Positions 351 to 64,000 of a stretch of 64,000 bases of DNA are shown here, one piece after another. Both the position numbers and the translations under genes were made by a program. The stretch lies in NCBI GenBank assembly GCA_030646755.1, contig JAUSKU010000076.1:5162-69161 (forward strand), read 5' to 3'. Within the stretch, counting starts at the first letter, position 1. Every line of letters starts with the position of its first letter. The notes beneath the pieces are model-generated. The model made no database searches and was not told the DNA's origin. It worked only from the letters and a program-made list of their open reading frames with translations. The stretch is from Deltaproteobacteria bacterium (GTDB lineage Bacteria > Desulfobacterota > JAENJC01).

Positions 351-590
351 ATGAAACGGTTCCTGAAAGTCATTTATGCAGGTTGGATGAAGTTCGCCCA
401 TATCCTGGGTTGGGTAAATACGAGGATAATCCTTACCCTTGTCTATCTCATTATATTTACCCCCCTTGCCCTTATCTTCAGGCTGATAGGAAAGGATCCG
501 ATGGATAGGCGACTTGAGAAAGGTAACAGCTATTGGGTAAAAAGGGAGCAAAAGGTCTTCAGGCAAGAGGATTACCGGAGGCAGTTCTGA
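351..590 (+). CDS. small two-TM membrane protein of the kind found next to NodU/CmcH carbamoyltransferases (SxtJ-like); hypothetical
   Basis: ATG at 351 preceded by an A/G-rich stretch. A hydrophobic 79-aa product lies immediately upstream of and overlapping the carbamoyltransferase gene. The family assignment is from memory of sxtJ/sxtK-like neighbours, not from a search. Confidence 0.4.
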   Translation: MKRFLKVIYAGWMKFAHILGWVNTRIILTLVYLIIFTPLALIFRLIGKDPMDRRLEKGNSYWVKREQKVFRQEDYRRQF

Positions 591-2506
591 GTAGTTACAT
601 ATTAGGCATCTCTGCTTTCTACCATGACTCCGCCGCCTGCCTTGTAAGGGACGGCGAGATCATAGCTGCTGCCCAAGAGGAGCGGTTTACAAGGAAGAAG
701 CACGACGCTGACTTTCCCCATAAGGCTATAGGTTACTGCCTTAAAGAGGCAGGTATAGGTATAGATAATGTTGACATCATTGCCTTCTACGACAAACCCT
801 TCATAAAGCTCGAACGGATACTTGAAACATACCTTTCTGTGGCACCCAGAGGGTGGCTTTCCTTTTTGACCGCAATGCCCGGATTATTAAAACAAAAGAT
901 GTGGGTCCCCCAGATTATCCAAAAAGAGCTGGGATATAGCGGTGAGATTATATTCTGCGAACACCATGAGGCCCATGCCGCATCCGCCTTTTATCCTTCC
1001 CCATTTGAAGAGGCGGCGATACTTACTATGGATGGAGTTGGTGAGTGGGCGACGTCAAGCATAGGTATAGGTAGAGGTAAAGATATAGAACTGCTGTATG
1101 AGCAGAGGTTTCCACATTCCTTGGGCCTCCTCTATTCAGCAATTACATACTACCTCGGTTTCAAGGTCAACAGCGGTGAATACAAGGTTATGGGGCTTGC
1201 GCCATATGGGGAGCCTGCATATAAAGACCTGATACTTAACGAGTTGATTGACCTCAAGGAAGACGGCTCTTTCAGGCTAAACATGAAATATTTCGGCTTC
1301 CTGGATACCCTGAGGATGACAAACAGGAATTTTGACAGACTGTTCGGCGCTCCGGCAAGAAAGCCTGAAACCAGGCTTGCACAACGTGAAATGGATATTG
1401 CAAGGTCCTTACAGGAGGCGACGGAAGAGATCATGCTCAGGATGGCAAGGCATGCCCATAAGATAACAGGAATGAAGAACCTGTGTCTTGCCGGAGGGGT
1501 AGCATTAAACTGCGTAGGTAACGGCCGGATTCTTAGAGAAGGGCCATTTGAGAATATCTGGATACAGCCTGCGGCAGGGGATGCAGGGGGGGCCTTGGGT
1601 GCAGCATTGTTTGGATGGTACAAGTATCTGGGGAATGATAGGATGGTTAGCAGTGTCACCCCCACCCCCACCCACCCCCGTCAAGGGGGAGGGGAAGAGA
1701 GAAAGGAAGAAGAAAGCCTCCCCTCCCTTGGCGGGAGGGGATTGAGGGGAGGGGGAGACTTCATGAAGGGCTCCTACCTCGGCCCCTCCTTTACGGATGA
1801 TGAGATAGAGGAGTTCTTGAAATCAAAGAACGCTCCATTTAAAAAAGTTTCGATCTCGAATATACCAAAAGAGACAGCAAGGCTACTTTCTGATGGCAAG
1901 GTTATCGGCTGGTTCCAGGGAAGGATGGAGTTCGGGCCGAGATCCCTGGGCGCAAGGAGTATCATAGGAGACGCCAGGAATCGGGAGATGCAATCGACCA
2001 TGAACCTCAAGATAAAGTTCAGGGAGTCGTTCCGCCCGTTTGCGCCTTCGGTTCTCCGGGAGGATGTGAACGAATGGTTTGAAATGGACTGCGACAGCCC
2101 ATATATGCTATTAGTTGCCCCCACTAGGGGAAGTAAGAGGATTCCTTTGACTGAAGAACAGGAAGGGCTTTTTGGCATCGAAAAACTCAATATCCCGAAA
2201 TCTGAAATACCGGCAGTTACGCATGTGGATTATTCTGCGAGGATACAGACGGTTCATAGGTATACAAATCCGCTCTATTATGATACGATAACTGAGTTTA
2301 AAAAACTCACAGGTTGTCCGGTGATAGTAAATACCTCCTTTAATGTAAGAGGAGAACCGATAGTCTGTACACCTGATGACGCATACAGGTGTTTTATGAG
2401 GACAAACATGGATAACCTCGTTATCGGCAGCTTTATTCTCGACAAAAAGGACCAGCCTGAATTTAAAGAAGATATGGATTGGCAAAAGGAGTTCGAGTTA
2501 GATTGA
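533..2506 (+). CDS. carbamoyltransferase, NodU/CmcH (HypF-like) family, carrying a ~35-aa in-frame low-complexity insertion; the exact start is uncertain
   Basis: ILGISAFYHDSAACLVRDGEIIAAAQEERFTRKKHD, the HEAHAASAF motif and a C-terminal YrdC-like region are typical of O-carbamoyltransferases. The ATG at 533 overlaps the upstream small ORF, so the true start may be later. Confidence 0.85.
   Translation: MGKKGAKGLQARGLPEAVLSSYILGISAFYHDSAACLVRDGEIIAAAQEERFTRKKHDADFPHKAIGYCLKEAGIGIDNVDIIAFYDKPFIKLERILETYLSVAPRGWLSFLTAMPGLLKQKMWVPQIIQKELGYSGEIIFCEHHEAHAASAFYPSPFEEAAILTMDGVGEWATSSIGIGRGKDIELLYEQRFPHSLGLLYSAITYYLGFKVNSGEYKVMGLAPYGEPAYKDLILNELIDLKEDGSFRLNMKYFGFLDTLRMTNRNFDRLFGAPARKPETRLAQREMDIARSLQEATEEIMLRMARHAHKITGMKNLCLAGGVALNCVGNGRILREGPFENIWIQPAAGDAGGALGAALFGWYKYLGNDRMVSSVTPTPTHPRQGGGEERKEEESLPSLGGRGLRGGGDFMKGSYLGPSFTDDEIEEFLKSKNAPFKKVSISNIPKETARLLSDGKVIGWFQGRMEFGPRSLGARSIIGDARNREMQSTMNLKIKFRESFRPFAPSVLREDVNEWFEMDCDSPYMLLVAPTRGSKRIPLTEEQEGLFGIEKLNIPKSEIPAVTHVDYSARIQTVHRYTNPLYYDTITEFKKLTGCPVIVNTSFNVRGEPIVCTPDDAYRCFMRTNMDNLVIGSFILDKKDQPEFKEDMDWQKEFELD
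1656..1758. repeat. G-rich palindromic MITE-like element, copy 1, in-frame inside the carbamoyltransferase CDS
   Basis: Module A (cacccccacccccacccacccccgtcaaggggagggg) plus module B (cccctcccttggcgggaggggattgaggggaggggg) are also found at 23002..23100 (reverse orientation) and 48081..48176. The element translates as SVTPTPTHPRQGGGEERKEEESLPSLGGRGLRGGGD, which is absent from homologues. Confidence 0.6.
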
Positions 2507-23001: not shown

Positions 23002-23100
23002 TCCCCCTCTCCCTTGACGGGAGAGGGTTGGGGTGAGGGTGAAACGTCACCATGCTGGTTCCCCTCCCCTTAATCCCCTCCCACCAGGGGAGGGGATTAA
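23002..23100. repeat. G-rich palindromic MITE-like element, copy 2, intergenic and in reverse orientation
   Basis: ccccctctcccttgacgggagagggttggggtgagggtg plus cccctccccttaatcccctcccaccaggggaggggattaa are the reverse complements of modules A and B. Confidence 0.6.
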
Positions 23101-27263: not shown

Positions 27264-28724
27264 ATGATCAACAAAGGCATTTTCAGGGAATACGACATAA
27301 GGGGCATAGCGGAGAAAGACCTTACCGATGAGGTGGTAACGCTGATAGGGAAGGGGTACGGGACCCTTGTAAGGCGTGAGACGTCAGACGTCAGACGTAA
27401 GCCGAAAGTGGCCGTGGGGCGGGATGTAAGGCTCAGCTCTAAGAGGCTCAGGGACGCCCTTATAAACGGTCTGACCTCTGTCGGTATTGACGTCATGGAT
27501 GTAGGCGAATGCCCGACCCCTCTCCTGTATTTCGCCGCATATACGCGGGATGTGGACGGCGGTATAATGATAACCGGGAGTCACAACCCCCCGGAATACA
27601 ATGGTTTCAAGATACTGATAGGTAAAGACACCATCCACGGCGGAGGGATTCAAGACCTCAGAAAGCTTATAGATACAGGTTCATTCGCCACCGGCCCAAT
27701 CGGCAGCGTTGAAGCCTTTGACGTGATCCCGGCCTACATCAAGGACGTAAAAGAAAGGTTCAACGCTGCCGGGAAAAAGATAAAGGCCGTAGTTGATTCA
27801 GGTAACGGCACAGGCGGCCTCGTTGCCCCGGAACTGTTAAAAAGCATAGGAGTCGATGTAATCCCGCTCTTCTGTGAGGTGGACGGCAATTTCCCGAACC
27901 ACCACCCCGACCCTACAGTCCCGGAAAACCTCAAAACCCTTATAGACAGGGTCATATCCGAGAATGCAGACCTTGGCATTGCCTATGATGGGGATTCGGA
28001 CAGGATCGGTGTTGTAAATGAGAAGGGCGCCATTATCTGGGGAGACCAGCTTATGATCCTCTTTGCGAGGGACATATTGAAGGGGACTGTCCCAGATTTA
28101 CGGACACCCCCCCTCAATCCCCCCCTTGCTAAGGGGGGGACGAAAGGGGGGGTAGAATCGGGACTGTCCCCGGCTTTGACGGAGAAACCTGTATTCGTTG
28201 GTGAGGTGAAGTGTTCCCAAGTCATGTATGACGACATTGAGAAGAAGGGCGGAAGGGCCATCATGTGGAAGGCAGGGCACTCCCTGATAAAAGACAAGAT
28301 GAAGAAGGAGAAGGCTGTCCTTGCAGGGGAGATGAGCGGGCATATTTTCTTTGCCGATAGATACTATGGTTTCGATGACGCCATCTACGCCACCTGCCGG
28401 GTCATAGAGATACTGAAAAAAGAAGGGAAACCTCTTTCCGAGCTTCTGGCCGACCTTCCAGAGACCTTTAACACGCCGGAGATCCGGGTAGACTGCCCGG
28501 ATGACAAGAAGTTCGATATAGTAGAGAGGGCGAAGGAGAAACTGGCAAAGGACTATCCCATAATCGATGTAGATGGTGTTAGAGTGAAGTTTAAAGAGGG
28601 TTGGGGCCTGATAAGGGCGTCCAATACCCAGCCTGTATTGGTGACAAGGTTTGAGGCGTCATCGGAAGAAAAACTCTTGGAATACAGGCATATTGTAGAG
28701 AAACTGCTGAAGGAGGTTATTTAA
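27264..28724 (+). CDS. phosphomannomutase/phosphoglucomutase (alpha-D-phosphohexomutase) with a ~30-aa in-frame insertion
   Basis: TGSHNPPEYNGFK active-site loop; GEMSGHIFFADRYYGFDD. The insertion lies between the LFARDIL and VFVGEVKCS blocks. Confidence 0.85.
   Translation: MINKGIFREYDIRGIAEKDLTDEVVTLIGKGYGTLVRRETSDVRRKPKVAVGRDVRLSSKRLRDALINGLTSVGIDVMDVGECPTPLLYFAAYTRDVDGGIMITGSHNPPEYNGFKILIGKDTIHGGGIQDLRKLIDTGSFATGPIGSVEAFDVIPAYIKDVKERFNAAGKKIKAVVDSGNGTGGLVAPELLKSIGVDVIPLFCEVDGNFPNHHPDPTVPENLKTLIDRVISENADLGIAYDGDSDRIGVVNEKGAIIWGDQLMILFARDILKGTVPDLRTPPLNPPLAKGGTKGGVESGLSPALTEKPVFVGEVKCSQVMYDDIEKKGGRAIMWKAGHSLIKDKMKKEKAVLAGEMSGHIFFADRYYGFDDAIYATCRVIEILKKEGKPLSELLADLPETFNTPEIRVDCPDDKKFDIVERAKEKLAKDYPIIDVDGVRVKFKEGWGLIRASNTQPVLVTRFEASSEEKLLEYRHIVEKLLKEVI
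28094..28159. repeat. diverged G-rich palindromic element inserted in the phosphomannomutase CDS, flanked by 11-bp direct repeats
   Basis: ccccccctcaatcccccccttgctaagggggggacgaaaggggggg is flanked by GGGACTGTCCC at 28083..28093 and 28160..28170. It is related to module B of the element family. Confidence 0.5.
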
Positions 28725-32366: not shown

Positions 32367-32371
32367 TGTAG

Positions 32372-32398
32372 GGGCGGGGTTACCCCGCCCCTACACCA
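32372..32398 (+). terminator. perfect 12-bp GC-rich hairpin after metF (no T-tract)
   Basis: gtaggggcgggg tta ccccgcccctac. Confidence 0.35.
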
Positions 32399-33133: not shown

Positions 33134-34412
33134 CAGATAGCGCCCTTCTTCCGATGTCCTTCCTGTAATGCACGCCGTTCCAGTTTATCTTTGAAACAGC
33201 CTGATACGCACTATCAATCGCCTCTTTGATGCCATTGCCCAATGCGGTCACGCCCAAGACCCTTCCGCCGTTTGTTACAACCTTCCCATCTTTCAGAGCA
33301 GTCCCGGCATGGAATACCATCACGTCATTCATCTTTGCCGCGTCATCAAGGCCCTTTATCTCGTCCCCTTTTTTGTAATCACCGGGGTATCCGCCTGCTG
33401 CCATGACAACGCATACCGAGGCCCTATTATCCCACTCAATCCTTATATCCGAAAGCCTTTCGTCAATCACAGCCTCCATGACCTCTATGATGTCGCTCTT
33501 CATCCTCATCATCAGAGGCTGTGTTTCAGGGTCACCGAACCTGGCATTGAACTCCAGTGCCTTTGGGCCTTTTCTGGTCATCATCAAGCCCGCATAAAGA
33601 ACTCCTTTGTAAGGCCTCCCTTCCGAAGCCATGCCTTGCACTGTCGGAAGCATGATCTCTTTCATGACCCTTTCCCTGAGTTCATCAGTCAATACTGGCG
33701 CAGGGGAATAAACTCCCATGCCTCCGGTATTCGGTCCCTCATCGTTATCATAGATCCTTTTGTGGTCCTGGGCAGAAGGCATGGGAAGAACGATCTTCCC
33801 GTCGGTAAAGGCCAGGAAGGAGACCTCTTCACCCTCCAGAAACTCCTCTATTACCACCTCGTCCCCCGCAGCGCCAAAGGCCTTGTCCCCCATTATCATG
33901 TTCACTGCATCAATCGCCTCTTCCAAAGTTGATGCGACTATAACGCCTTTCCCTGCTGCAAGGCCTGAGGCCTTGACTACTATGGGAGCACCCTTGGCCT
34001 TAACATAAGAAATGGCCTTCTCCTTCTCTGTAAAGGCCTCGTATTCTGCGGTAGGTATGCCGTATTTTTTCATAACGGCCTTTGAGAACGCCTTGCTACC
34101 CTCTATCTCGGCGGCCCTCCTGCTTGCCCCGAATATCCTCAGCCCAGCATTCTCGAATTCATCAACTATCCCTGCTGTCAGAGGCACTTCAGGCCCGACC
34201 ACAGTAAGATCGATACCTTCCTTTTTTGCAAAGGAGAGAAGCCGGTCTATATCCTCGACTTTGATGTCCACACACTCTGCAATCTGAGCAATGCCGGCAT
34301 TCCCAGGGGCGCAAAATAATATTGAATTTTGAGTTTTAAATTTTGTACTTTGTTTTATCTTCCAAACAAGGGCGTGTTCGCGACCGCCGGAGCCTACAAC
34401 TAAAATCTTCAT
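33123..34412 (-). CDS. purD: phosphoribosylamine--glycine ligase
   Basis: MKILVVGSGGREHALVWK...APGNAG. The start was chosen at the internal ATG (34412) matching the PurD N-terminus; the ORF track extends to 34463. Confidence 0.9.
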   Translation of the reverse strand: MKILVVGSGGREHALVWKIKQSTKFKTQNSILFCAPGNAGIAQIAECVDIKVEDIDRLLSFAKKEGIDLTVVGPEVPLTAGIVDEFENAGLRIFGASRRAAEIEGSKAFSKAVMKKYGIPTAEYEAFTEKEKAISYVKAKGAPIVVKASGLAAGKGVIVASTLEEAIDAVNMIMGDKAFGAAGDEVVIEEFLEGEEVSFLAFTDGKIVLPMPSAQDHKRIYDNDEGPNTGGMGVYSPAPVLTDELRERVMKEIMLPTVQGMASEGRPYKGVLYAGLMMTRKGPKALEFNARFGDPETQPLMMRMKSDIIEVMEAVIDERLSDIRIEWDNRASVCVVMAAGGYPGDYKKGDEIKGLDDAAKMNDVMVFHAGTALKDGKVVTNGGRVLGVTALGNGIKEAIDSAYQAVSKINWNGVHYRKDIGRRALSAKA

Positions 34413-46811: not shown

Positions 46812-47306
46812 TTATGGTTTACGTTTGTATTCCCCTGACTTTCCGCCAGCCTTATACAAAAGGCCGATGTTCTCGAAGGTCATCTCCTTGTCTACGGCCT
46901 TGCACATATCATATATCGTAAGGAGTGTAGTGGTAACGGCGGTAAGGGCCTCCATCTCAACCCCTGTCTGACCCGTGGTCTGTACCCTGGCCTCCACATC
47001 AATGGACACAAGGCCGTCATCGTCCGGAACCGGGTTTTCCTTGAAGTTTATGCCTATGCCGGTAAGAAAGAGAGGATGGCACATTGGAATAATCTCGGAT
47101 GTCTTCTTTGCCCCCATTATGCCAGCCACCTGGGCCACAGCCAAGACGTCACCCTTCTTCATCTTTCCTTCCAGGATGAGTTGCAACGTCTCTGGTTTCA
47201 TACATACCCGTCCTCCGGCAATGGCAACCCTACTGGTTGCCTCCTTGCCGGAAACATCCACCATCCTTGCCCTTCCCTCAGAATCAAAGTGTGTAAACCT
47301 TTCCAT
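46812..47306 (-). CDS. moaC: cyclic pyranopterin monophosphate synthase
   Basis: [24 protein letters not shown]...; the internal ATG was chosen because the upstream ORF-track extension lacks homology. Confidence 0.8.
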
Positions 47307-47355
47307 GCCGTTATCATGCCACCTTGAGGCCTCATTGTCAACTGGCAAATAACTC

Positions 47356-47384
47356 TTGACTAAAACCCCAAACCGTCCTAAAAT
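47356..47384 (+). promoter_or_regulatory. sigma70-like promoter for moaDE in the divergent moaC/moaDE intergenic region
   Basis: TTGACT (47356..47361), 17-bp spacer, TAAAAT (47379..47384). Confidence 0.45.
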
Positions 47385-47406
47385 GCCTTCTTTATAGGGA
47401 CTTTTT

Positions 47407-48072
47407 ATGATAAAAGTACGGTTTTTTGCGGTCATCAAAGAACGATTAGGAAAGGAAGATATCTCTCTTGACCTATCTAAAGGGAGTGTGGCTGAAATAA
47501 TAAGGGCCATAGGAGAGGAGTTCCCAAATTTTGAATCTGTGTTGAAGAGCTTCAATGCAATGATAGCGGTAAATCACGAGATGGCGGATATGGACACTAT
47601 CGTAAAGGATGGAGACGAAGTGGCCTTTATCCCTCCCTTTTCTGGGGGCGAAGGGATGGTCAGGATACAAGAAGGGAACTTTTCCTTAGATGAGGAGATA
47701 GAAAGGGTCAAAAAAAGTTCAAAGAGGATCGGCGGAATTGCCGTGTTCCTGGGAACCGCCAGGGATCTCTCAAAAGGTAAGGACATAAGTGGCCTTTCCT
47801 TCGAACATTACCCGGTGATGGCAGATAGAAAGCTCAATGAGATTAGGGAACGGGCAATAAAGGAATTTGGAGTCATAGAGGTCTCCATAGTCCACAGGAC
47901 AGGTAAAATAGGGATAGGCGAAAACATTGTCCTCATAGTTGCCGCAGCAGAGCACAGGAAAGAGGCATTTAAGGCCTGCGAATTCACTATTGATGAACTT
48001 AAAAGGATTACCCCCATCTGGAAAAAGGAAACTACCATAAGCGGTGAGGAATGGGTTGAGCAACACCCATAG
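47407..48072 (+). CDS. moaDE: molybdopterin synthase MoaD-MoaE fusion
   Basis: The N-terminal ~80 aa are a ubiquitin-like MoaD ending in GG (IPPFSGG). The C-terminal ~140 aa are MoaE. Confidence 0.8.
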
Positions 48073-48080
48073 TTTAATGT

Positions 48081-48176
48081 CATCCCCTCCCCTGGCGGGA
48101 GGGGATGAAGGGGAGGGGGAATTTTAGCATGACAGTTCACCCCCACCCCAACCCTCCCCCGTCAAGAGGGAGGGAG
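48081..48176. repeat. G-rich palindromic MITE-like element, copy 3, intergenic, ordered module B then A
   Basis: catcccctcccctggcgggaggggatgaaggggaggggg ... cacccccaccccaaccctcccccgtcaagagggaggg. Confidence 0.6.
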
Positions 48177-48194
48177 TAATTGCAGGAGGCTAAT

Positions 48195-48434
48195 ATGGCT
48201 GAAAAAAAGATCTGTCCCACATGCGGCCAGGTTATCAAGGAAAAGAAGGGCGGATTAATCCTGCCTATCATAATCGGAACTGTTATCTGGTTATTAATTA
48301 CAATTGCATTTAATCAATACTACTTTGCAGGCTCTGGGTTCTGGGACACTATGCCTCTAATACACCTGTTTTTCGGTGTTCTCCTCGGCATAACCAACGG
48401 CCTTATTGTGGGCTTAATAATGAGGAAAAAATAA
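48195..48434 (+). CDS. small zinc-ribbon (CPTCG) membrane protein; hypothetical
   Basis: MAEKKICPTCGQ plus two TM helices. Confidence 0.4.
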   Translation: MAEKKICPTCGQVIKEKKGGLILPIIIGTVIWLLITIAFNQYYFAGSGFWDTMPLIHLFFGVLLGITNGLIVGLIMRKK

Positions 48435-48444
48435 AGAAACCTTT

Positions 48445-48924
48445 ATGCGTAAGAAGCTGCTGTATCTGATATTGTTGCTCTTATTAACATATGGATGTAA
48501 GGGCAAGGAGGTCGTAGGCACAACTGCTGTTGATTTTGTTCTTGAGGGGATCAGCGGAGGACAGATTACATACTCAGAACTAAAAGGCAGGCCTGTACTC
48601 CTTTACTTTTTTGCATCCTGGTGAGTACGCTGCAAAGACGAACTCCCTCTGGTCGAGAGGGCATATAAAAACCATAAAGATAAAGGGTTGCAGATAATAG
48701 GGATCGGCTTCCAGGACACAAGGGAAAATATCAGAAATTATGCTAATGAAAATAAACTCCCATATCCTGTAGCATACGATGACGAGAACAAAGTTGCCTC
48801 CTCTTACGGCCTTCCGTACGGTGCCGGCGTTATATTTATATCAAAGGACGGGATCGTGACAGGCAGGTTCAGAAGCGGCTTCACGGAACCTGACTTCGAA
48901 AAAGAACTGAAAAAGATGCTATGA
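48445..48924 (+). CDS. thioredoxin-fold (TlpA/ResA-like) thiol:disulfide oxidoreductase selenoprotein with a UxxC redox motif; in-frame UGA at 48622..48624
   Basis: ATG at 48445 gives signal peptide MRKKLLYLILLLLLTYGC, then ...PVLLYFFASW-U-VRC... It continues in the same frame as ORF-track 48688..48924. A hairpin ccctct-GGUCG-agaggg lies 21 nt downstream of the UGA as a SECIS candidate. Confidence 0.6.
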
Positions 48925-50435
48925 AAAAAATCCTATTTATAACCCCCCCATACCATGCAGGCGTAGTAGAAGTTGCCGGCCGCTGGGTCCCGCTGAACAT
49001 GGTCTATATCGCGGCTGCTGCAAGAGAAGCCGGCCTTGAGGCCCATATCTATGATGCCATGACCAAGGGCGTCGGACATGCCGAGATAGAGGCAAAGATA
49101 AGGGAGCTTCAGCCTGATTACGTTGCAACTACTGCCATAACCTGCACATCCCCCGACGCCTTAAAGGTAATTGAGACTGCCAAAAGGGTGAACCCGAAGA
49201 TAGTCACTATAATAGGCGGGATACACTCAACCTTTATGTATAATGAGATGTTTGATCTCTCCAAAGGGAATCTCGACTTTATAGTAAGAGGAGAGGGAGA
49301 CATAACTGTTAGAGAACTCCTTGCCACCATTGAAGCAGGCGGAGACCTTAACGATGTCCGCGGCATAGCCTACAAAAAAGGTGACAAGATAATAAAGACA
49401 CCGGGACGTCCCCTGATGCCTGCATCAGAGCTTGATAGCCTTCCCCAGGCGTGGGACCTGTTGGATTGGGAAGATTACGTTTATTTCATACTCCCGAAGT
49501 CAAGGCTCGGCGCGATAGCTACCTCAAGAGGTTGCGACAAGGATTGCACCTTCTGCTCCCAGAGGATTTTCTGGGAGAAGTCGTGGAGGGGAAGGAGTCC
49601 GGATTCTCTCATTAAAGAGATAGAGCTCCAGCACCTCAAATACGGTGTAAATGTAATCCTTCTGACTGACGACTATCCTACCCTCGACAGGAATAGGTGG
49701 GAAACCTTCCTGGACATGCTGATTGAAAAAAACTGGCCGATATACCTCCTTATGGAGACAACGGTTGGAGACATCATCAGGGACAGAGACATCTTAACAA
49801 AATATAGAAAGGCGGGGATTATACATATCTACGTCGGAACCGAATCTGTCAGCCAGGAGACCCTTGATTTAATAAAGAAGGATGTCAAGGTTGATGAGTC
49901 GAGGGAGGCGCTCCGGCTGCTGAACGAACACGGGATCATAACTGAAACCTCCATGATCCTCGGCTTCCCTTCGGAGACAAAAAAGTCTATTGAAGATACG
50001 CTGGTATTGGCAAAAGAATACAACCCAGACTTCTGCCATTTCCTTGCCATAGCGCCATGGCCTTATGCAGACATATATGCTGAACTGGAGAGGTATATTG
50101 TTGTCAAAGACTACAAACGCTATAACCTCATAGACCCTATAATAAAGCCGGAAAAGATGACCTTGGAAGAGATAGACCAGGCCATAGTTGACTGCTACAG
50201 GGATTTCTATATGGGGAAGATGCATGAAATAATGGGATTGAAGGACCAGTTCAAGAGAGAATACCTCCTTACCTCAATGAAGCTCATGATGAACTCTTCA
50301 TTCCTTATAAAGAAGCTTGGCCACATGGAAGGAATGCCAGAGGAAATGAGGCTCAGGATGTCATCCGGGGCCGCGGCCCATGGAGAGATGGTTGCTATGA
50401 ACAAAGACCTTTTGAAGGAGAGGATTAATAAATGA
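48921..50435 (+). CDS. B12-binding domain radical SAM enzyme (class B), fourth copy in the window
   Basis: MKKILFITPPYHAG... cobalamin-binding domain; SRGCDKDCTFC. ATGA overlap with the selenoprotein stop. Confidence 0.8.
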   Translation: MKKILFITPPYHAGVVEVAGRWVPLNMVYIAAAAREAGLEAHIYDAMTKGVGHAEIEAKIRELQPDYVATTAITCTSPDALKVIETAKRVNPKIVTIIGGIHSTFMYNEMFDLSKGNLDFIVRGEGDITVRELLATIEAGGDLNDVRGIAYKKGDKIIKTPGRPLMPASELDSLPQAWDLLDWEDYVYFILPKSRLGAIATSRGCDKDCTFCSQRIFWEKSWRGRSPDSLIKEIELQHLKYGVNVILLTDDYPTLDRNRWETFLDMLIEKNWPIYLLMETTVGDIIRDRDILTKYRKAGIIHIYVGTESVSQETLDLIKKDVKVDESREALRLLNEHGIITETSMILGFPSETKKSIEDTLVLAKEYNPDFCHFLAIAPWPYADIYAELERYIVVKDYKRYNLIDPIIKPEKMTLEEIDQAIVDCYRDFYMGKMHEIMGLKDQFKREYLLTSMKLMMNSSFLIKKLGHMEGMPEEMRLRMSSGAAAHGEMVAMNKDLLKERINK

Positions 50436-57473: not shown

Positions 57474-59225
57474 ATGAGATTCCTGTCTAATAAAAACCTG
57501 ACGTTACCTTTTCTGATCGCCCTTGTCACGTTTATAACCTATCTCCCGGCCCTGAACAACGATTTTGTGAACTGGGACGACCCGACCTATGTCTATGAAA
57601 ACCCGCATCTCCAATTATTAAATTTAGATTTCATAGAATGGGCCTTTTCATCAGTATATTTCAGCAACTGGCACCCTCTTACGATGATTTCCTATGCATT
57701 GGATTATTCCATCTGGGGGCTGAACCCATTTGGATACCACCTGACCAATATATTTTTTCATGCTTGCAATACCTTCCTGGTTTTCGTCCTGGTTGTGCGT
57801 TTGATAGAATGTCAACCCAACTCCCCCATCCCCCTTTTTAATAAAGAGGGGGTCAGGGGGCGTTATCCTTCATCCCTCGTTGCCGCCTCTGTAACCGCCC
57901 TTCTATTCGGCATCCACCCTATACATGTAGAGTCGGTTGCATGGGTGTCCGAAAGAAAGGATGTCTTATGCGCCTTTTTCTTTTTACTGGCCCTTCTCGT
58001 ATATCTCAGATATGTCTCTGCGAAAACCAGAACATCACTCCTCTATAGTCTGTGTCTCCTTCTCTTCGCAATGGCGCTGCTGAGCAAGCCTATGGCCGTG
58101 TCATTCCCTGTTGTCCTGCTGATACTGGACTTCTACCCCTTAAAGAGATTCCGGGCCGGAGATGAAAAGATTAAGAGAATCCTGGCGGAAAAACTGCCAT
58201 TCTTCCTGTTCAGCCTTTTGTCGTCATTGATGACCGTATGGGCGCAATATTTGGGAGGATCATTAAAACCGCTTGAAATCTATCCCCTTACTACTCGTTT
58301 CTTTGTAGCCATGTGGGCGATACTTTTCTATCTGTCAAAGATGCTCATCCCTCTTGACCTTGCCCCTTTTTACCCCTACCCTTCCCAAATCACCGCAACA
58401 CATATAGGGGCCTTTATCCTCGTATCCGGGCTGATCGCCTACTGCATTAAGAATAGACTTTTAACTGCCGTCTGGTCTTATTATATAATCACCCTTATTC
58501 CTGTCATCGGGATCGTGCAGGTCGCCGGATTCGCAGCAGCCGACCGTTATACATACCTGCCTAGCATAGGGCCGTTTATGCTTGCCGGCATTGCCATAAG
58601 CCTGCTCATTGAAGGCTATTCAAGATACAAAAAGGCAGTTGTTGCCGTGCTTGCAGGCCTGACTGTCCTTACTGTAAGTATGACAATAAAACAGATAGAG
58701 GTATGGAGGGACTCTATTACCCTCTGGTCTCATGAGATAAAGATATATCCTGATTTCTACAGCTCCTATTATAGCCGTGGGAATGCCTATATAAAATTGA
58801 ATAGATATGATGAGGTAATAAGCGATTATACCAAGGCCATTGAACTTAACCCTAAATACCTGGATGCCTACAATAACCGGGGGAACATCTATTTCGATTT
58901 GGGCAATTATCAGGCAGCATTATCGGATTATAATAAGGCGCTTGAACTCAACCCTCTGGACAGCCAGGTCTACACCAATCGAGGCAACGCATATCTCGGG
59001 TTGGGGGACTATGCTCAGGCAATAAAGAACCATGATAGGGCCATTGAGCTCAACCCAAACGACGCAACGGCTTACAACAATCGCGGTGCCGCCTATTTCA
59101 GATCAGGAAATTACGCCCATGCGATAAGGGACTTCAGCAGGGCCGTCGAGCTTGATCCGCAGTTCACTGATGCATATAACAATTTACAAGCGGCCGACCG
59201 CTCCTTTAAAGCCATCGATAGATAA
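57474..59225 (+). CDS. TMTC-like protein: DUF1736 membrane domain plus C-terminal TPR repeats (putative GT-C O-mannosyltransferase-like)
   Basis: FVNWDDPTYVYENPHL...NWHPLTMISYALDYSIWGLNPFGYHLTN and seven C-terminal TPR units (YNNRGNIYFDLGNYQAAL...). Confidence 0.65.
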   Translation: MRFLSNKNLTLPFLIALVTFITYLPALNNDFVNWDDPTYVYENPHLQLLNLDFIEWAFSSVYFSNWHPLTMISYALDYSIWGLNPFGYHLTNIFFHACNTFLVFVLVVRLIECQPNSPIPLFNKEGVRGRYPSSLVAASVTALLFGIHPIHVESVAWVSERKDVLCAFFFLLALLVYLRYVSAKTRTSLLYSLCLLLFAMALLSKPMAVSFPVVLLILDFYPLKRFRAGDEKIKRILAEKLPFFLFSLLSSLMTVWAQYLGGSLKPLEIYPLTTRFFVAMWAILFYLSKMLIPLDLAPFYPYPSQITATHIGAFILVSGLIAYCIKNRLLTAVWSYYIITLIPVIGIVQVAGFAAADRYTYLPSIGPFMLAGIAISLLIEGYSRYKKAVVAVLAGLTVLTVSMTIKQIEVWRDSITLWSHEIKIYPDFYSSYYSRGNAYIKLNRYDEVISDYTKAIELNPKYLDAYNNRGNIYFDLGNYQAALSDYNKALELNPLDSQVYTNRGNAYLGLGDYAQAIKNHDRAIELNPNDATAYNNRGAAYFRSGNYAHAIRDFSRAVELDPQFTDAYNNLQAADRSFKAIDR

Positions 59226-59291: not shown

Positions 59292-61298
59292 GTGAAGAAA
59301 AGAAAGAAGCAGGAAAACCTTACTACGCAAAAAACCTCTATTTCACAAGCACATAGCGATCCTCAACAACATAGCGCTTTTATTTTTTCCGAGCATCTCC
59401 TGCCATTTATTACGGCTTTTTCTGTTGCCCTTATCACCTTCATAATCTACCTCCCCACCCTTAATAACGGCTTTGTAAACTGGGACGACCCCACATATAT
59501 CTACGAAAACCCGCACATACGCTTATTAAACCTCTCTTTTATAAAATGGGCCTTCTCATCTGTATACTTCAGCAACTGGCACCCGTTAACGGTGATCTCC
59601 TATGCATTGGATTATGCCGTATGGGGGCTAAACCCTTTCGGATACCACCTGACCAACATTGTTTTTCATGCGGCAAATACGTTTCTGGTTTTTGTCCTGG
59701 CTGTACGTTTAACCGAATGTGGAATAACTCAAAATTTAAAATTCAAAACTCAAAACTTTCAGTTGATCTCCGCCTCTGCAACCGCCCTTCTCTTTGGCAT
59801 ACACCCTGTCCATGTGGAGTCTGTTGCGTGGGTGTCTGAAAGAAAGGATGTCTTATGCGCCTTTTTCTTCTTATTAAGCCTTATTTCATACGTCAAATAT
59901 GTATCTGTAAAGACTACTAAGCCTTATGTCCTGAGTCTTGTCTTTTTCATACTGGCGCTGATGAGCAAACCGATGGCTGTCTCATTGCCTGCGGTACTGC
60001 TGATACTGGACTTTTATCCGTTAAAGAGATTCCAGGCCGGGAATGAAAAGATAAAAAGAGTCATGGTGGAAAAACTGCCTTTCTTTCTGTTCACCCTTTT
60101 GTCGTCATTGATAACCATATGGGCTCAATACTCTGAAGGAGCGTTAAAGCCGCTTGAAATCTATCCCCTTACTACCCGATTTTTTGTAGCCATATGGGCG
60201 ATACTTTTCTATCTGTCAAAAATGCTCCTTCCTCTCGACTTTGCCCCGTTTTACCCATACCCTTCCCAAATCACCATAATGCACATAGGGGCCTTTATCC
60301 TAGTGTCAGGACTGACAGCCTACTGCATTAAGAATAGACTCTTATCCGCCGTCTGGTCTTATTATATAATCACACTTATCCCTGTTATCGGAATAATTCA
60401 GGTTGGCAACTCTGCGGCGGCCGACCGTTATACATACCTGCCCTCCATAGGACTGTTCGTGCTTGTGGGCATAGCTATAGCCCGATTCATTGAAATGCAT
60501 TCGAAGTATAGAACGGCGGTAGCGGTCGTGCTTGCAGGCCTTGCTATTTTTACTGTAAGCATGACCATTAAACAGATAGGTGTGTGGAGGGACTCTATTA
60601 CCCTCTGGTCTCATGAAATTGCAATATTTCCCGAGACTATGGCAGCTCCTTATGATTACCGTGGGACCGCTTATAGCAAATTAGGCAATTATGAGAAGGC
60701 CATTGCGGATTTTAATATGGCAATAAAGTTAAACCCTGCTTATCCTGAGGCTTATAACAACAGGGGAGATGTTTATTTTAAATTGGGAGATTATCAGCAA
60801 GCAATCAAAAATTACAGTACCGCAATTGAGTTAGCTCCCGGATATGCCGAAGCTCATAATAACCGTGGACGTATCTATGCTATGCAAGGGAGACTTGATG
60901 AGGGGATGCATGAATTTCAGACTGCATTAAAATTGAAACCTATTTCAGAAGCCCACAGCAATCTGGGAAGCATCTATGCAAGTAAAGGAAGACTAACAGA
61001 AGCGATCGCTGAATTTCAGAAAGCGTTGAGTCTCGAGCCGGATGAACATATCTATTACTACGGCTTAGGTAATGTCTATCATACTCTGGAGCAGCTGGAT
61101 GAGGCCAAATATTATTATGAGGAAGCTTTACGTCTGAACGGGAATTTTGTAGAAGCCCATTACAGTTTAGGAGTAGTTTATATTAAAATGGGATTTAAAG
61201 AAAAAGGAATAATGGAATTAGAATCAGCGTTAAAGCTAAAACCTGGATTTGAACCTGCCCGCCAACTACTGGAATCCCTCATTACTTCCCGTCATTGA
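59292..61298 (+). CDS. TMTC-like protein, tandem paralog of 57474..59225 (GTG start)
   Basis: The N-terminal 450 aa are ~75% identical to the upstream paralog; longer TPR tail. Confidence 0.65.
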   Translation: MKKRKKQENLTTQKTSISQAHSDPQQHSAFIFSEHLLPFITAFSVALITFIIYLPTLNNGFVNWDDPTYIYENPHIRLLNLSFIKWAFSSVYFSNWHPLTVISYALDYAVWGLNPFGYHLTNIVFHAANTFLVFVLAVRLTECGITQNLKFKTQNFQLISASATALLFGIHPVHVESVAWVSERKDVLCAFFFLLSLISYVKYVSVKTTKPYVLSLVFFILALMSKPMAVSLPAVLLILDFYPLKRFQAGNEKIKRVMVEKLPFFLFTLLSSLITIWAQYSEGALKPLEIYPLTTRFFVAIWAILFYLSKMLLPLDFAPFYPYPSQITIMHIGAFILVSGLTAYCIKNRLLSAVWSYYIITLIPVIGIIQVGNSAAADRYTYLPSIGLFVLVGIAIARFIEMHSKYRTAVAVVLAGLAIFTVSMTIKQIGVWRDSITLWSHEIAIFPETMAAPYDYRGTAYSKLGNYEKAIADFNMAIKLNPAYPEAYNNRGDVYFKLGDYQQAIKNYSTAIELAPGYAEAHNNRGRIYAMQGRLDEGMHEFQTALKLKPISEAHSNLGSIYASKGRLTEAIAEFQKALSLEPDEHIYYYGLGNVYHTLEQLDEAKYYYEEALRLNGNFVEAHYSLGVVYIKMGFKEKGIMELESALKLKPGFEPARQLLESLITSRH

Positions 61299-61609: not shown

Positions 61610-62887
61610 CTATCGTCCTTTTTGAGTATATTTCATTGTTAAGTAATCATAACCCCCGATATCGGAGTATGTCGTACCTGTTACATATACTGCTCCCGCA
61701 GCATCTACAGCGATATCTGATGACTCATCAGCGGAGCCTCCGTCAAATGTCCTCACCCACTTTTCATTTCCGCCTGTATCATATTTAATTGTAACAACAT
61801 TTGTCGGCATGTTAACAGGTTGGATTCTCCCGGTAATATAGATACCACTATCTACATCCATAGCCATAGCGGAAGGCTTTTCACCATTATTCCCGCTGTC
61901 ATATCTTGTTGTCCATTGCAAGCTACCGTTGACGTCATACTTGACAGTAACAATATTTGCTACCCGGTTACTGTTGTCACTTGAACCAGTCACGTAGACA
62001 TTCCCTGTAGCATCGACCATAATGGCTTCAGCCAAGTCCTCGTAACCATAGCCAGCATCGTAATTCCTAATCCACTGCTCATTCCCATTTGTATCATACT
62101 TTATTGTAGTGTAATCGTTCCATCCCCCTGCATTTTCGCTTCGCCCCGCTATATAAATATTGCCTGAAGAATCAACTAAGAGTGCGGCAGGCCTATCCTC
62201 AAAACCACCGTCATATCGCCTGGCCCATAATTCATTTCCATTAGGGTCATACTTTACAGTCGCAAAGTCAAAGCCGCCTGAAGAAGAGTCGCTATATCCT
62301 GTCACACATATATTCCCAGACGTATCTAAAGCAAGACCGAACGGGTAATCGCTCCATAACCCGCCATACCACTTAACCCACACCTCATTCCCATTCGCAT
62401 CATATTTTATTGTAGCATAATCATTTCCGCCGGAAGGGCCAATGCTACTTTTTGCTACATATATATTTCCAGAAAAATCAACGGCGATAGCATTACCGCC
62501 ATCCTTTACCCATAATTCATTTCCATTTGTATCATACTTTAGAGTGGCAGTAGTCCCTGTCACATAAACATTGCCGAAGGAATCAACAACCAAAGCAGAA
62601 GGCACATCCGGCATCGCCCAATACCCATTATCATACCGCTTGACCCACAGTTGATTCCCATTAGTATCATATTTTATTGTCGCATAGTCGGAATTTTCTC
62701 CCCAACTTGTTCCCGTCACATATACGTTACCCCACGGATCAAGTGAAACGGCAATCACCTTATCATTACCATGGACAGCTCCATCATATGTTCTTATCCA
62801 TTTTTCTATAGCAACTTGCGCCCCAGCATAATGCGGTAACAATAAAAACAGGAACGACATCACTGCAACGGATATTTTCCACCTCAT
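61610..62887 (-). CDS. secreted beta-propeller (SBBP-type) repeat protein
   Basis: Signal peptide MRWKISVAVMSFLFLLLPHYAGA; more than 8 repeats of YDTNGN(E/Q)LWV(K/R)RYDG. Confidence 0.65.
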   Translation of the reverse strand: MRWKISVAVMSFLFLLLPHYAGAQVAIEKWIRTYDGAVHGNDKVIAVSLDPWGNVYVTGTSWGENSDYATIKYDTNGNQLWVKRYDNGYWAMPDVPSALVVDSFGNVYVTGTTATLKYDTNGNELWVKDGGNAIAVDFSGNIYVAKSSIGPSGGNDYATIKYDANGNEVWVKWYGGLWSDYPFGLALDTSGNICVTGYSDSSSGGFDFATVKYDPNGNELWARRYDGGFEDRPAALLVDSSGNIYIAGRSENAGGWNDYTTIKYDTNGNEQWIRNYDAGYGYEDLAEAIMVDATGNVYVTGSSDNSNRVANIVTVKYDVNGSLQWTTRYDSGNNGEKPSAMAMDVDSGIYITGRIQPVNMPTNVVTIKYDTGGNEKWVRTFDGGSADESSDIAVDAAGAVYVTGTTYSDIGGYDYLTMKYTQKGR

Positions 62888-63230: not shown

Positions 63231-64000
63231 TCAATTCTCAATTAAAGCAAGTTCCTGCCGGGCCGGATAAAAATCCGGCTTCAACTTCAGTGCCATTTCA
63301 AATGCCTCCCTCGCATTGTCCTTCACGCCCTTTGCGAGATATGCCTTCCCCAGATTAAAATAGACGTAGTGGTCCGGCTTAAGCTTTATAGCAGCCTGAT
63401 ACTCAAGTATGGCGTCATCAAGGCGCCCCATTTTATAATAGGTGTTTGCAAGATAGTTATAATATGAGGGGTCGTTTGGATTCAGCTCTATCGCTGCATT
63501 ATACTCCCGCACCGCCTCATCAAAGCACATCTGCTTAAGATATATGCTTCCCAGGCTACTGTGGTAGTATGGATTATTTGGGCTTAGCCTGATAGCCGCC
63601 TGATGCTGCCTTATGGCATCTTCAAGACGTCCGAGCTTGCCGTAAGTGACTCCAAGATTATAATTAGCATTAGTATGGAGCGGGTTCAACTCAACTGCCT
63701 TTTCAAGGTCGCTAACAGCCTTGGCATACTCTCCTCTCATCAGATAGGCCTGTCCGCGGTTGTTATACCCCAGTACCGTTTCTTGATTGAGTTTAATTTG
63801 ATGGGACCAGAGGGTTATAGAGTCCTGCCATATGCCTATTTGTTTTATTGTCTTGACGATCAAAATCCCTGATAGAAGGACCAAGATGCCTATGATGCCG
63901 GCCAGATAATGTTTTTTTGAAAGACCCTCAAAGACGCGTCCTATACCCAGCCCGGCAAGAAGGAATAGACTCAGGCTCGGTAGATACGTGTATCGGTCAG
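63231..64000 (-). CDS. TMTC-like protein, third paralog; the N-terminus lies beyond the window end
   Basis: TIKQIGIWQDSITLWSHQIK plus TPR repeats are colinear with the 57474 and 59292 products. The frame stays open upstream of the first in-window ATG (63884) to nt 64000. Confidence 0.6.
   Translation of the reverse strand, partial: DRYTYLPSLSLFLLAGLGIGRVFEGLSKKHYLAGIIGILVLLSGILIVKTIKQIGIWQDSITLWSHQIKLNQETVLGYNNRGQAYLMRGEYAKAVSDLEKAVELNPLHTNANYNLGVTYGKLGRLEDAIRQHQAAIRLSPNNPYYHSSLGSIYLKQMCFDEAVREYNAAIELNPNDPSYYNYLANTYYKMGRLDDAILEYQAAIKLKPDHYVYFNLGKAYLAKGVKDNAREAFEMALKLKPDFYPARQELALIEN

Follow-up and report, generated by a model that had tools for sequence, protein, structure and literature searches.

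What kind of repeat is the G-rich, palindromic element of about 100 bp at positions 48081-48176, and how do such elements come and go? The question was addressed across the window, that is the whole stretch of 64 kb of DNA analysed here, from an uncultured metagenome-assembled genome (MAG) labelled 'Deltaproteobacteria'. The original prediction had seen in it one of three full copies of a dispersed, non-autonomous, MITE- or REP-like family with one diverged relative and possibly a second.

Short units in inverted pairs

All five loci of the original prediction were present in the window at the coordinates given (1656, 23002, 28094, 48081 and 57826). A rule-based finder, set to a minimum stem of 8, no more than one imperfect triad and triads of the types G·G:C, A·A:T or T·A:T alone, returned nine units of about 35 nt, all at those five loci and nowhere else in the window, and zero units in five mononucleotide shuffles of the window. 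The triplex rule was obeyed by all nine, with stems of 9-10 and 0-1 imperfect triads. Six strong units form three inverted pairs, two overlap (28105-28154) and one is degenerate (57819-57852), so that the possible relative suspected at 57826..57865 was detected as well. A degenerate unit pattern matched five times in the window, while 0.00 matches were expected from 100 dinucleotide-preserving shuffles. Chance G/C composition was thus ruled out as a source of the similarity, which is positional and not merely a matter of poly-G/C, and the idea of a dispersed, positionally conserved family was borne out. The flagged element consists of two units and a spacer:

48083..48118, plus strand: subtype B unit, left half, TCCCCTCCCC / TGG / CGGGAGGGGA / TGA / AGGGGAGGGG
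48119..48139, no strand: spacer between the two units, from the alignment; 3 nt shorter in the orthologous copy of L244
48140..48174, minus strand: subtype A unit, right half, CCCTCCCTC / TTGAC / GGGGGAGGG / TTG / GGGTGGGGG

Read on the G-rich strand, a unit starts with a pyrimidine block, CCCTCTCCC or CCCCTCCC, which is followed by a loop of 3-7 nt, an exactly complementary purine block, a linker of 1-5 nt and a second purine block. The latter is the mirror image of the first and carries A or T where the duplex has A:T. Subtype B is distinguished by CCCCTCCC blocks and a longer (5-nt) second loop. In the flagged element, the left unit was found with a 10-triad stem containing one imperfect triad and also matched the degenerate pattern; in the right unit, the third block mirrors the second, with T opposite an A:T pair.

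The modules A and B that had been recognised in the three full copies were recovered by a repeat finder with 86-95% identity or complementarity. For module A, 1656-1693 is 92% identical to 48137-48174 and shows 86-87% complementarity to 23005-23049; for module B, 1719-1756 is 92% identical to 48083-48120 and shows 92-95% complementarity to 23061-23097. Modules A and B prove to be one kind of unit, read in opposite directions, so that each element of about 100 bp joins two subtypes as an inverted pair. Each of the three strong loci is an A+B pair of this type, with about 20 nt between the units. The 23002 copy, described before as a reverse complement, is indeed one, but of the 48081 order (B then A) and not of the 1656 order (A then B). 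Single-strand folding with ViennaRNA, in which only hairpins are modelled, yielded three consecutive hairpins for the B-then-A pairs and one long nested hairpin for the A-then-B pair. The z-scores of the copies ranged from -2.7 to -5.8, in agreement with the stable hairpins that had been anticipated.

No Rfam family was detected at gathering thresholds anywhere in the window. No transposase or RAYT was found among the sizeable window ORFs scanned against Pfam, supporting the view that the elements are non-autonomous within the window; by Pfam, the ORFs are genes for envelope glycans, cofactors, nucleotides and housekeeping functions. A perfect GGGGCGGGG/CCCCGCCCC hairpin was noticed at 32371-32391, directly after the stop codon of the MTHFR gene; it lacks a third block and is therefore not a triplex-motif unit.

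Filled, empty and nested sites at orthologous loci

The flagged element is intergenic, between moaD-moaE and a small ORF, and the comparison of orthologous loci that had been proposed as a check was informative. In L244 (MoaE 81% identity) a matching B+A element occupies the identical position downstream of moaE. The site is empty in L243 (MoaE 80%), where a 19-nt spacer alone precedes the corresponding small ORF. In the closest relative, L242 (MoaE 95%), it is rearranged, without the element, the small ORF and the next gene. There, moaE leads straight to a TMEM260-like gene (L242 3164-3260), and the roughly 2.3 kb missing relative to window positions 48073-50431 comprise a B12-binding radical SAM gene besides the element and the small ORF. 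No target-site duplication was visible in the filled/empty comparison at this site. The longest MoaC ORF (46812-47555, minus strand) has about 97 residues ahead of its Pfam domain and shares about 150 nt with the divergent moaD-moaE fusion (47407-48072); the true MoaC start codon probably lies further downstream in the ORF.

Several copies had been reported to lie inside genes. This holds for the copies at 1656, 28094 and 57826, but those at 23002 and 48081 are intergenic. The first of the intragenic copies is a complete pair:

575..2506, plus strand: carbamoyltransferase gene, Pfam N domain 9-345 and C domain 435-624
1659..1693, minus strand: subtype A unit in the carbamoyltransferase ORF, from the finder and the DNA of orthologous sites
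1694..1717, no strand: purine-rich spacer of the intragenic pair, from the sequence
1718..1753, plus strand: subtype B unit in the carbamoyltransferase ORF, from the finder and folding

A 108-nt insert (1649-1756) takes the place of a 4-codon loop between the N and C domains, in frame, and protein alignment revealed that this segment is missing from homologues. In the AlphaFold2 model of the carbamoyltransferase (pTM 0.83), residues 356-389 are predicted as coil with pLDDT below 50. L003 and every more distant homologue have an empty loop; L001 has an A unit and an unrelated hairpin there, and L002 a degenerate A-like unit in another reading frame. With one A-A mismatch in its stem, the 1659-1693 unit is decaying relative to the L001 copy. 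Again, no target-site duplication was found in the filled/empty comparison. The hairpin adjoining the A unit in L001 (11160-11195) is perfect, has the sequence TAGGGGCAATTCATGAATTGCCCCTA and encodes the peptide 'GAIHELPLQ'. It has no copy in the window; similar '...PLQ' peptides occur at the variable loop of phosphomannomutase (PMM) relatives. A literature search found no published description of the peptide motifs KKGDLGGF, GAIHELPL and similar ones. The intragenic pair has three of six frames free of stops and each intergenic pair one of six; three elements are too few to argue selection from the openness of the intragenic frames.

The second intragenic locus, regarded so far as a diverged relative at 28094, does contain a real unit. 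This is a palindromic C7/G7 unit set into a hairpin repeat of another kind, 60 nt long:

28083..28172, plus strand: unrelated outer hairpin repeat with arms GGGGACTGTCCCAGATTTACGGAC / GTCGTAGAATCGGGACTGTCCCC
28105..28154, no strand: palindromic C7/C7/G7/G7 unit, the triplex motif being readable on both strands, from the finder and folding

The C7/G7 unit occupies the apical loop of the outer hairpin, and both lie in frame in the PMM gene (27264-28724), whose product has Pfam domains I-IV. Relative to P. aeruginosa PMM/PGM, the insert contributes about 31 extra residues, near the start of Pfam domain III. Orthologues form a nested series: L241 is empty, L239 carries only the 60-nt GGGACTGTCCC-type hairpin, and in the window and in L240 the 17-nt apical loop of this hairpin is swapped for the 47-nt C7/G7 palindromic unit. 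At this loop, too, the filled/empty comparison disclosed no target-site duplication. The outer hairpin of about 60 nt, which stands alone at L239 2700-2760, encodes 'GTVPDLRTEQSGVVESGLSP'. Further PMM relatives (P0125, P0132, P0136-P0138, P0205 and P0209) carry loop peptides such as SGVRGQGS, SEVRSQKS and GLQLTTHNSQL, which, to judge from the peptides, look like derivatives of 7-nt tandem repeats. The loop thus seems to collect short repeats in general.

The third intragenic locus holds a single unit:

57819..57866, no strand: degenerate C5/C5/G5/G5 palindromic unit, found with 9 triads, 1 of them imperfect

It lies in frame in a variable loop of a membrane/TPR protein gene (57474-59225). The 75-nt segment with the unit is non-homologous to a 54-nt segment of the tandem paralogue, and the repeat offsets are 1908 against 1887. 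This gene and its neighbour (59292-61298) are tandem membrane-protein paralogues with C-terminal TPR repeats, 79-84% identical at the DNA level over long stretches; the TPR-coding parts of both match a TPR gene on the opposite strand (63231-63884) as inverted repeats. The variable loop of the second paralogue contains an A/T-rich segment of 7-nt periodicity (CAAAATTTAAAATTCAAAACTCAA, 59730-59753), the reverse complement of which recurs with 22 of 24 bases near the 5' end of purD (34322-34345). Both encode 'KFKTQN' in frame and may represent a small tandem-heptamer repeat family, or chance. Six copies of a 58-nt repeat, spaced 132-315 nt apart, were seen at 61744-62689 inside ORF 61610-62887; since Pfam SBBP beta-propeller repeats lie there, they are ordinary protein repeats.

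Taken together, orthologous sites gain, lose and remodel elements of this kind with no duplication of the target, and the elements encode nothing of their own. The intragenic copies encode loops that are absent from homologues and predicted to be disordered.

Family membership and competing explanations

A motif of E. coli has been named, in sequence, BoxC, PIT (potential intrastrand triplex) element and TM-ECO, and has the consensus 5'-CCCTCNCCC N3-6 GGGNGAGGG N3 GGGNGAGGG-3' (Holder et al., 2015, PMC4666352; earlier work by Hoyne & Maher, 2000, is cited therein). E. coli MG1655 harbors 23 copies, all intergenic, with five inverted pairs that each consist of a type A and a type B unit, and the strict consensus was reported in 262 proteobacterial genomes (PMC4666352). 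The isolated strand forms a very stable triplex by CD and NMR, with 18 imino signals that fit a triplex and not a G-quadruplex (G4), while DMS footprinting gave no triplex footprint in vivo (PMC4666352). Neither promoter or terminator activity nor a link to transposons or mobile elements was observed for the motif, which was associated with local sequence variability and genome instability (PMC4666352). The pair at 23002 provides the closest connection to it:

23004..23039, plus strand: subtype A unit, from the rule-based finder and the TM-ECO consensus match
23061..23096, minus strand: subtype B unit, partner of 23004-23039, from the finder and repeat similarity

Positions 23005-23039 match the published TM-ECO consensus exactly, once in the window and never in 100 shuffles. 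The strict consensus is fitted by this window unit alone; the others are variants with GGGGGAGGG/GGGTGGGGG blocks, or with CCCCTCCC blocks and a 5-nt second loop, and hence point to a broader G/C-rich triplex-motif class rather than the strict TM-ECO consensus. When the 23002 pair was used as a blastn query, matches turned up in 5014 of the 5426 complete genomes of E. coli searched, the matching genomes having a median of 13 places each. Among the best matches listed, the pair aligned as a single piece with 76% identity over 85% of the 116-nt query (E = 8e-9), and the E. coli sites lay in unannotated intergenic DNA. An alignment of three copies of this lineage with one from E. coli contains 57 invariant columns and shows the common plan of unit, spacer and inverted unit. 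The 76% similarity could reflect convergence under one structural rule instead of common descent. At the best-matching E. coli site (yggN-yggL, strain K_EC180), K-12 MG1655 has a different, REP-like sequence, for which its record (L289 3625-3807) gives no repeat annotation at yggN-yggL; as the two strains differ there, the E. coli locus used for the alignment is strain-variable. In the window, the 23002 pair is intergenic, between an RNase E/G-family gene and an rRNA adenine dimethylase gene (rsmA/ksgA-type). Four promoter-like consensus matches were found near it (0.5 expected), and no terminator-like site overlaps either intergenic pair (48081, 23002).

Related units were then collected from other genomes. 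A loosened pattern retrieved at least 120 loci in viral contigs with GC contents of 0.39 to 0.73; among these matches listed, the complementary C block was nearly always complete, though the pattern did not demand one. With a subtype-B pattern, at least 114 loci were obtained in species-representative genomes, and those listed came mostly from MAGs labelled Syntrophales, Syntrophaceae, Deltaproteobacteria or Desulfobacterota, while others carried the labels Nitrospirae, Aminicenantes, Chloroflexi or Acetobacteraceae. Among the matches listed, neighbours within 120 nt were inverted in 79 of 83 cases in genome contigs and 49 of 60 in viral contigs, and single units and overlapping palindromic units were common. 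On units not selected by the search patterns, again among the matches listed, the third-block base opposite A:T was A or T in 110/110 and 268/273 cases (378/383 in total). Where purine blocks were asymmetric, the third block was mirror-only in 119 and direct-only in 2 of the matches listed. Such mirror and A/T constraints are predicted by an antiparallel purine-motif third strand, but not by a plain hairpin repeat, a direct repeat or a G-quadruplex.

In-frame units were also met elsewhere, in a methyltransferase (L226), CobQ (L225) and a PMT_2 glycosyltransferase (L001). In one MAG contig (L166), heptosyltransferase, LpxK and LpxB genes lie within 8 kb, each with an in-frame 'PPLKKGDTGGF'-type unit:

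1405-1436, 2357-2388 and 7419-7493 of L166: in-frame units

In L231 (1923-2013), an inverted pair joins two CoA-transferase family III domains in a 791-codon stop-free frame; the repeat may have fused two genes here, or a stop codon may have been lost.

The window units thus share with BoxC/PIT/TM-ECO the succession of a Y block, a 3-6 nt loop, a complementary R block, a loop of about 3 nt and a mirrored R block, as well as the one exact consensus match, the inverted two-subtype pairing and the 76% whole-pair identity. A transposase is not associated in either case (here within the window), and presence or absence varies between relatives. In contrast to the E. coli elements, they reside in an uncultured MAG labelled 'Deltaproteobacteria', their subtype B has CCCCTCCC blocks and a 5-nt second loop, and three of the five window loci lie in frame inside Pfam-supported genes, whereas all 23 MG1655 copies are intergenic. 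This intragenic location is a difference in behaviour, not in sequence definition. We are therefore confident that the window elements are members of the BoxC/PIT/TM-ECO family already known from E. coli. Each unit of about 35 nt very probably represents, to judge from its sequence, a class II purine-motif intrastrand triplex motif, the proposed folding in the window resting on the sequence rule and, by analogy, on the E. coli oligonucleotide data. The set constitutes new, lineage-specific BoxC/PIT/TM-type intrastrand-triplex-motif repeats in inverted pairs.

Alternative readings have to be weighed against the same evidence. The G-quadruplex-like tracts put forward in the original prediction do fit the sequence: every unit has four G3+ tracts with loops of 1-5 nt and hence a canonical G4 motif (four runs of at least three G, loops 1-7 nt). 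Such tracts could fold into a G4 that regulates transcription or translation, with the C block as a competing (i-motif) switch, and the two intergenic copies do lie between co-oriented genes, shortly upstream of the next start codon. A G4 explains less than a triplex, however, because it needs no mirror symmetry, no restriction to A/T opposite A:T and no perfectly complementary C block, all of which are features of the units (the first two in 119 mirror-only against 2 direct-only and in 378/383 cases among the matches listed). The imino signals of the E. coli motif are triplex-consistent, units occur in both orientations and inside ORFs, and earlier work saw no promoter or terminator activity (PMC4666352), making a regulatory G4 very unlikely.

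Mobilisation of inverted doublets in trans, by a RAYT (an IS200/IS605-type tyrosine transposase) encoded elsewhere in the genome, would make the elements REPs or REPINs. Like REP, BIME and REPIN sequences, they are short GC-rich palindromes that occur as inverted dimers, form long hairpins and mosaic clusters and are polymorphic in presence between strains or at orthologous sites (PMC3116915; PMC3733652). REPs have even been found as dimers inside genes, translated as 20-30 aa (PMC3733652). A REP is defined by a conserved tetranucleotide, GTAG (or CGTC), at an end of its palindrome (PMC3733652), but the ends of the window units differ between copies, no such tag is conserved and CGTC is found near a unit in the 23002 copy only. 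Moreover, no RAYT or other transposase is present among the ORFs of the 64-kb window, the most constrained feature is the third, mirror-image purine block, which a plain REP hairpin lacks and does not need, and the E. coli family showed no link to mobile elements (PMC4666352). 'REP' is therefore at most a loose analogy, and we regard this origin as improbable, if slightly less so than the G4. The MITE label has to be given up almost entirely, although size (about 100 bp), palindromic structure, dispersal, non-coding nature and the existence of filled and empty sites would agree with it. None of three filled/empty comparisons (moaE-downstream, carbamoyltransferase, PMM) revealed a target-site duplication, and the insertions substitute a few resident bases instead of duplicating them. 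No terminal inverted repeats distinct from the palindrome and no related IS within the window were found, and single and overlapping units are so common that the pair of about 100 bp is not the sole mobile unit. The intrastrand-triplex reading accounts for the mirror block, the A/T rule and the E. coli NMR data.

Turnover of the elements and its meaning

In the proposed mechanism, the pyrimidine block would pair with the purine block to give a hairpin, and the mirror-image purine block would return along the purine strand as an antiparallel third strand with G·G:C, A·A:T or T·A:T triads. Such a triplex might arise briefly when replication or repair exposes single-stranded DNA, and copies may then spread and turn over through slippage, template switching or gene conversion between them. 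In this lineage, copies would persist where they land in a surface loop or linker and their length is a multiple of three, presumably because a Pro/Gly/Ser/Arg-rich peptide makes a tolerated disordered loop. Judged from the element-bearing sites, the turnover is compatible with the local instability reported for the E. coli motif.

The small dispersed repeats of cyanobacteria described by Elhai et al. in 2008 are reportedly very short hairpins that nest inside other repeats. By description, they resemble the elements studied here in this nesting of repeats in repeats; the sequences and hosts differ. Another parallel is offered by the Rickettsia palindromic elements (RPEs), which are not known from outside Rickettsia. 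RPEs, reported as about 150 bp, likewise insert in frame in unrelated housekeeping genes, the fold of which tolerates the added peptide (PMC10969869). Compared by description, the window units differ in being G/C blocks of about 35 nt that belong to a cross-phylum family and in the predicted disorder of the encoded peptide. As in-frame palindromes are known for REPs (PMC3733652) and RPEs (PMC10969869), the intragenic copies are new for the family, not new in kind.

What stands out most is that several repeat families have colonised the same protein loops, repeatedly, in frame and nested within one another. Examples are the interdomain linker of the carbamoyltransferase and the loop at the start of PMM domain III; in such loops triplex-motif units, the GGGACTGTCCC hairpin, the TAGGGGCAATTCATGAATTGCCCCTA hairpin and, in relatives, loop peptides of apparent 7-nt tandem-repeat origin were found. 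Quite tentatively, and with considerable doubt, we suggest that in this lineage certain surface loops of conserved enzymes receive short structured repeats again and again, from several unrelated families that nest in each other's hairpin loops. Insertion or gene conversion would then be guided by structure and independent of a transposase, and would also generate diversity in protein linkers. If true, such a process would be more than mere tolerance of random insertions.

With this assignment, repeats that abound in metagenome-assembled genomes, and that otherwise yield odd Pro/Gly-rich 'insertions' or spurious small ORFs, receive a name and a published structural model. It extends the known behaviour of the family to contigs labelled as many other groups and to copies inside functional genes. 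The series of filled, empty and nested orthologous sites provides material for studying how transposase-less repeats spread.
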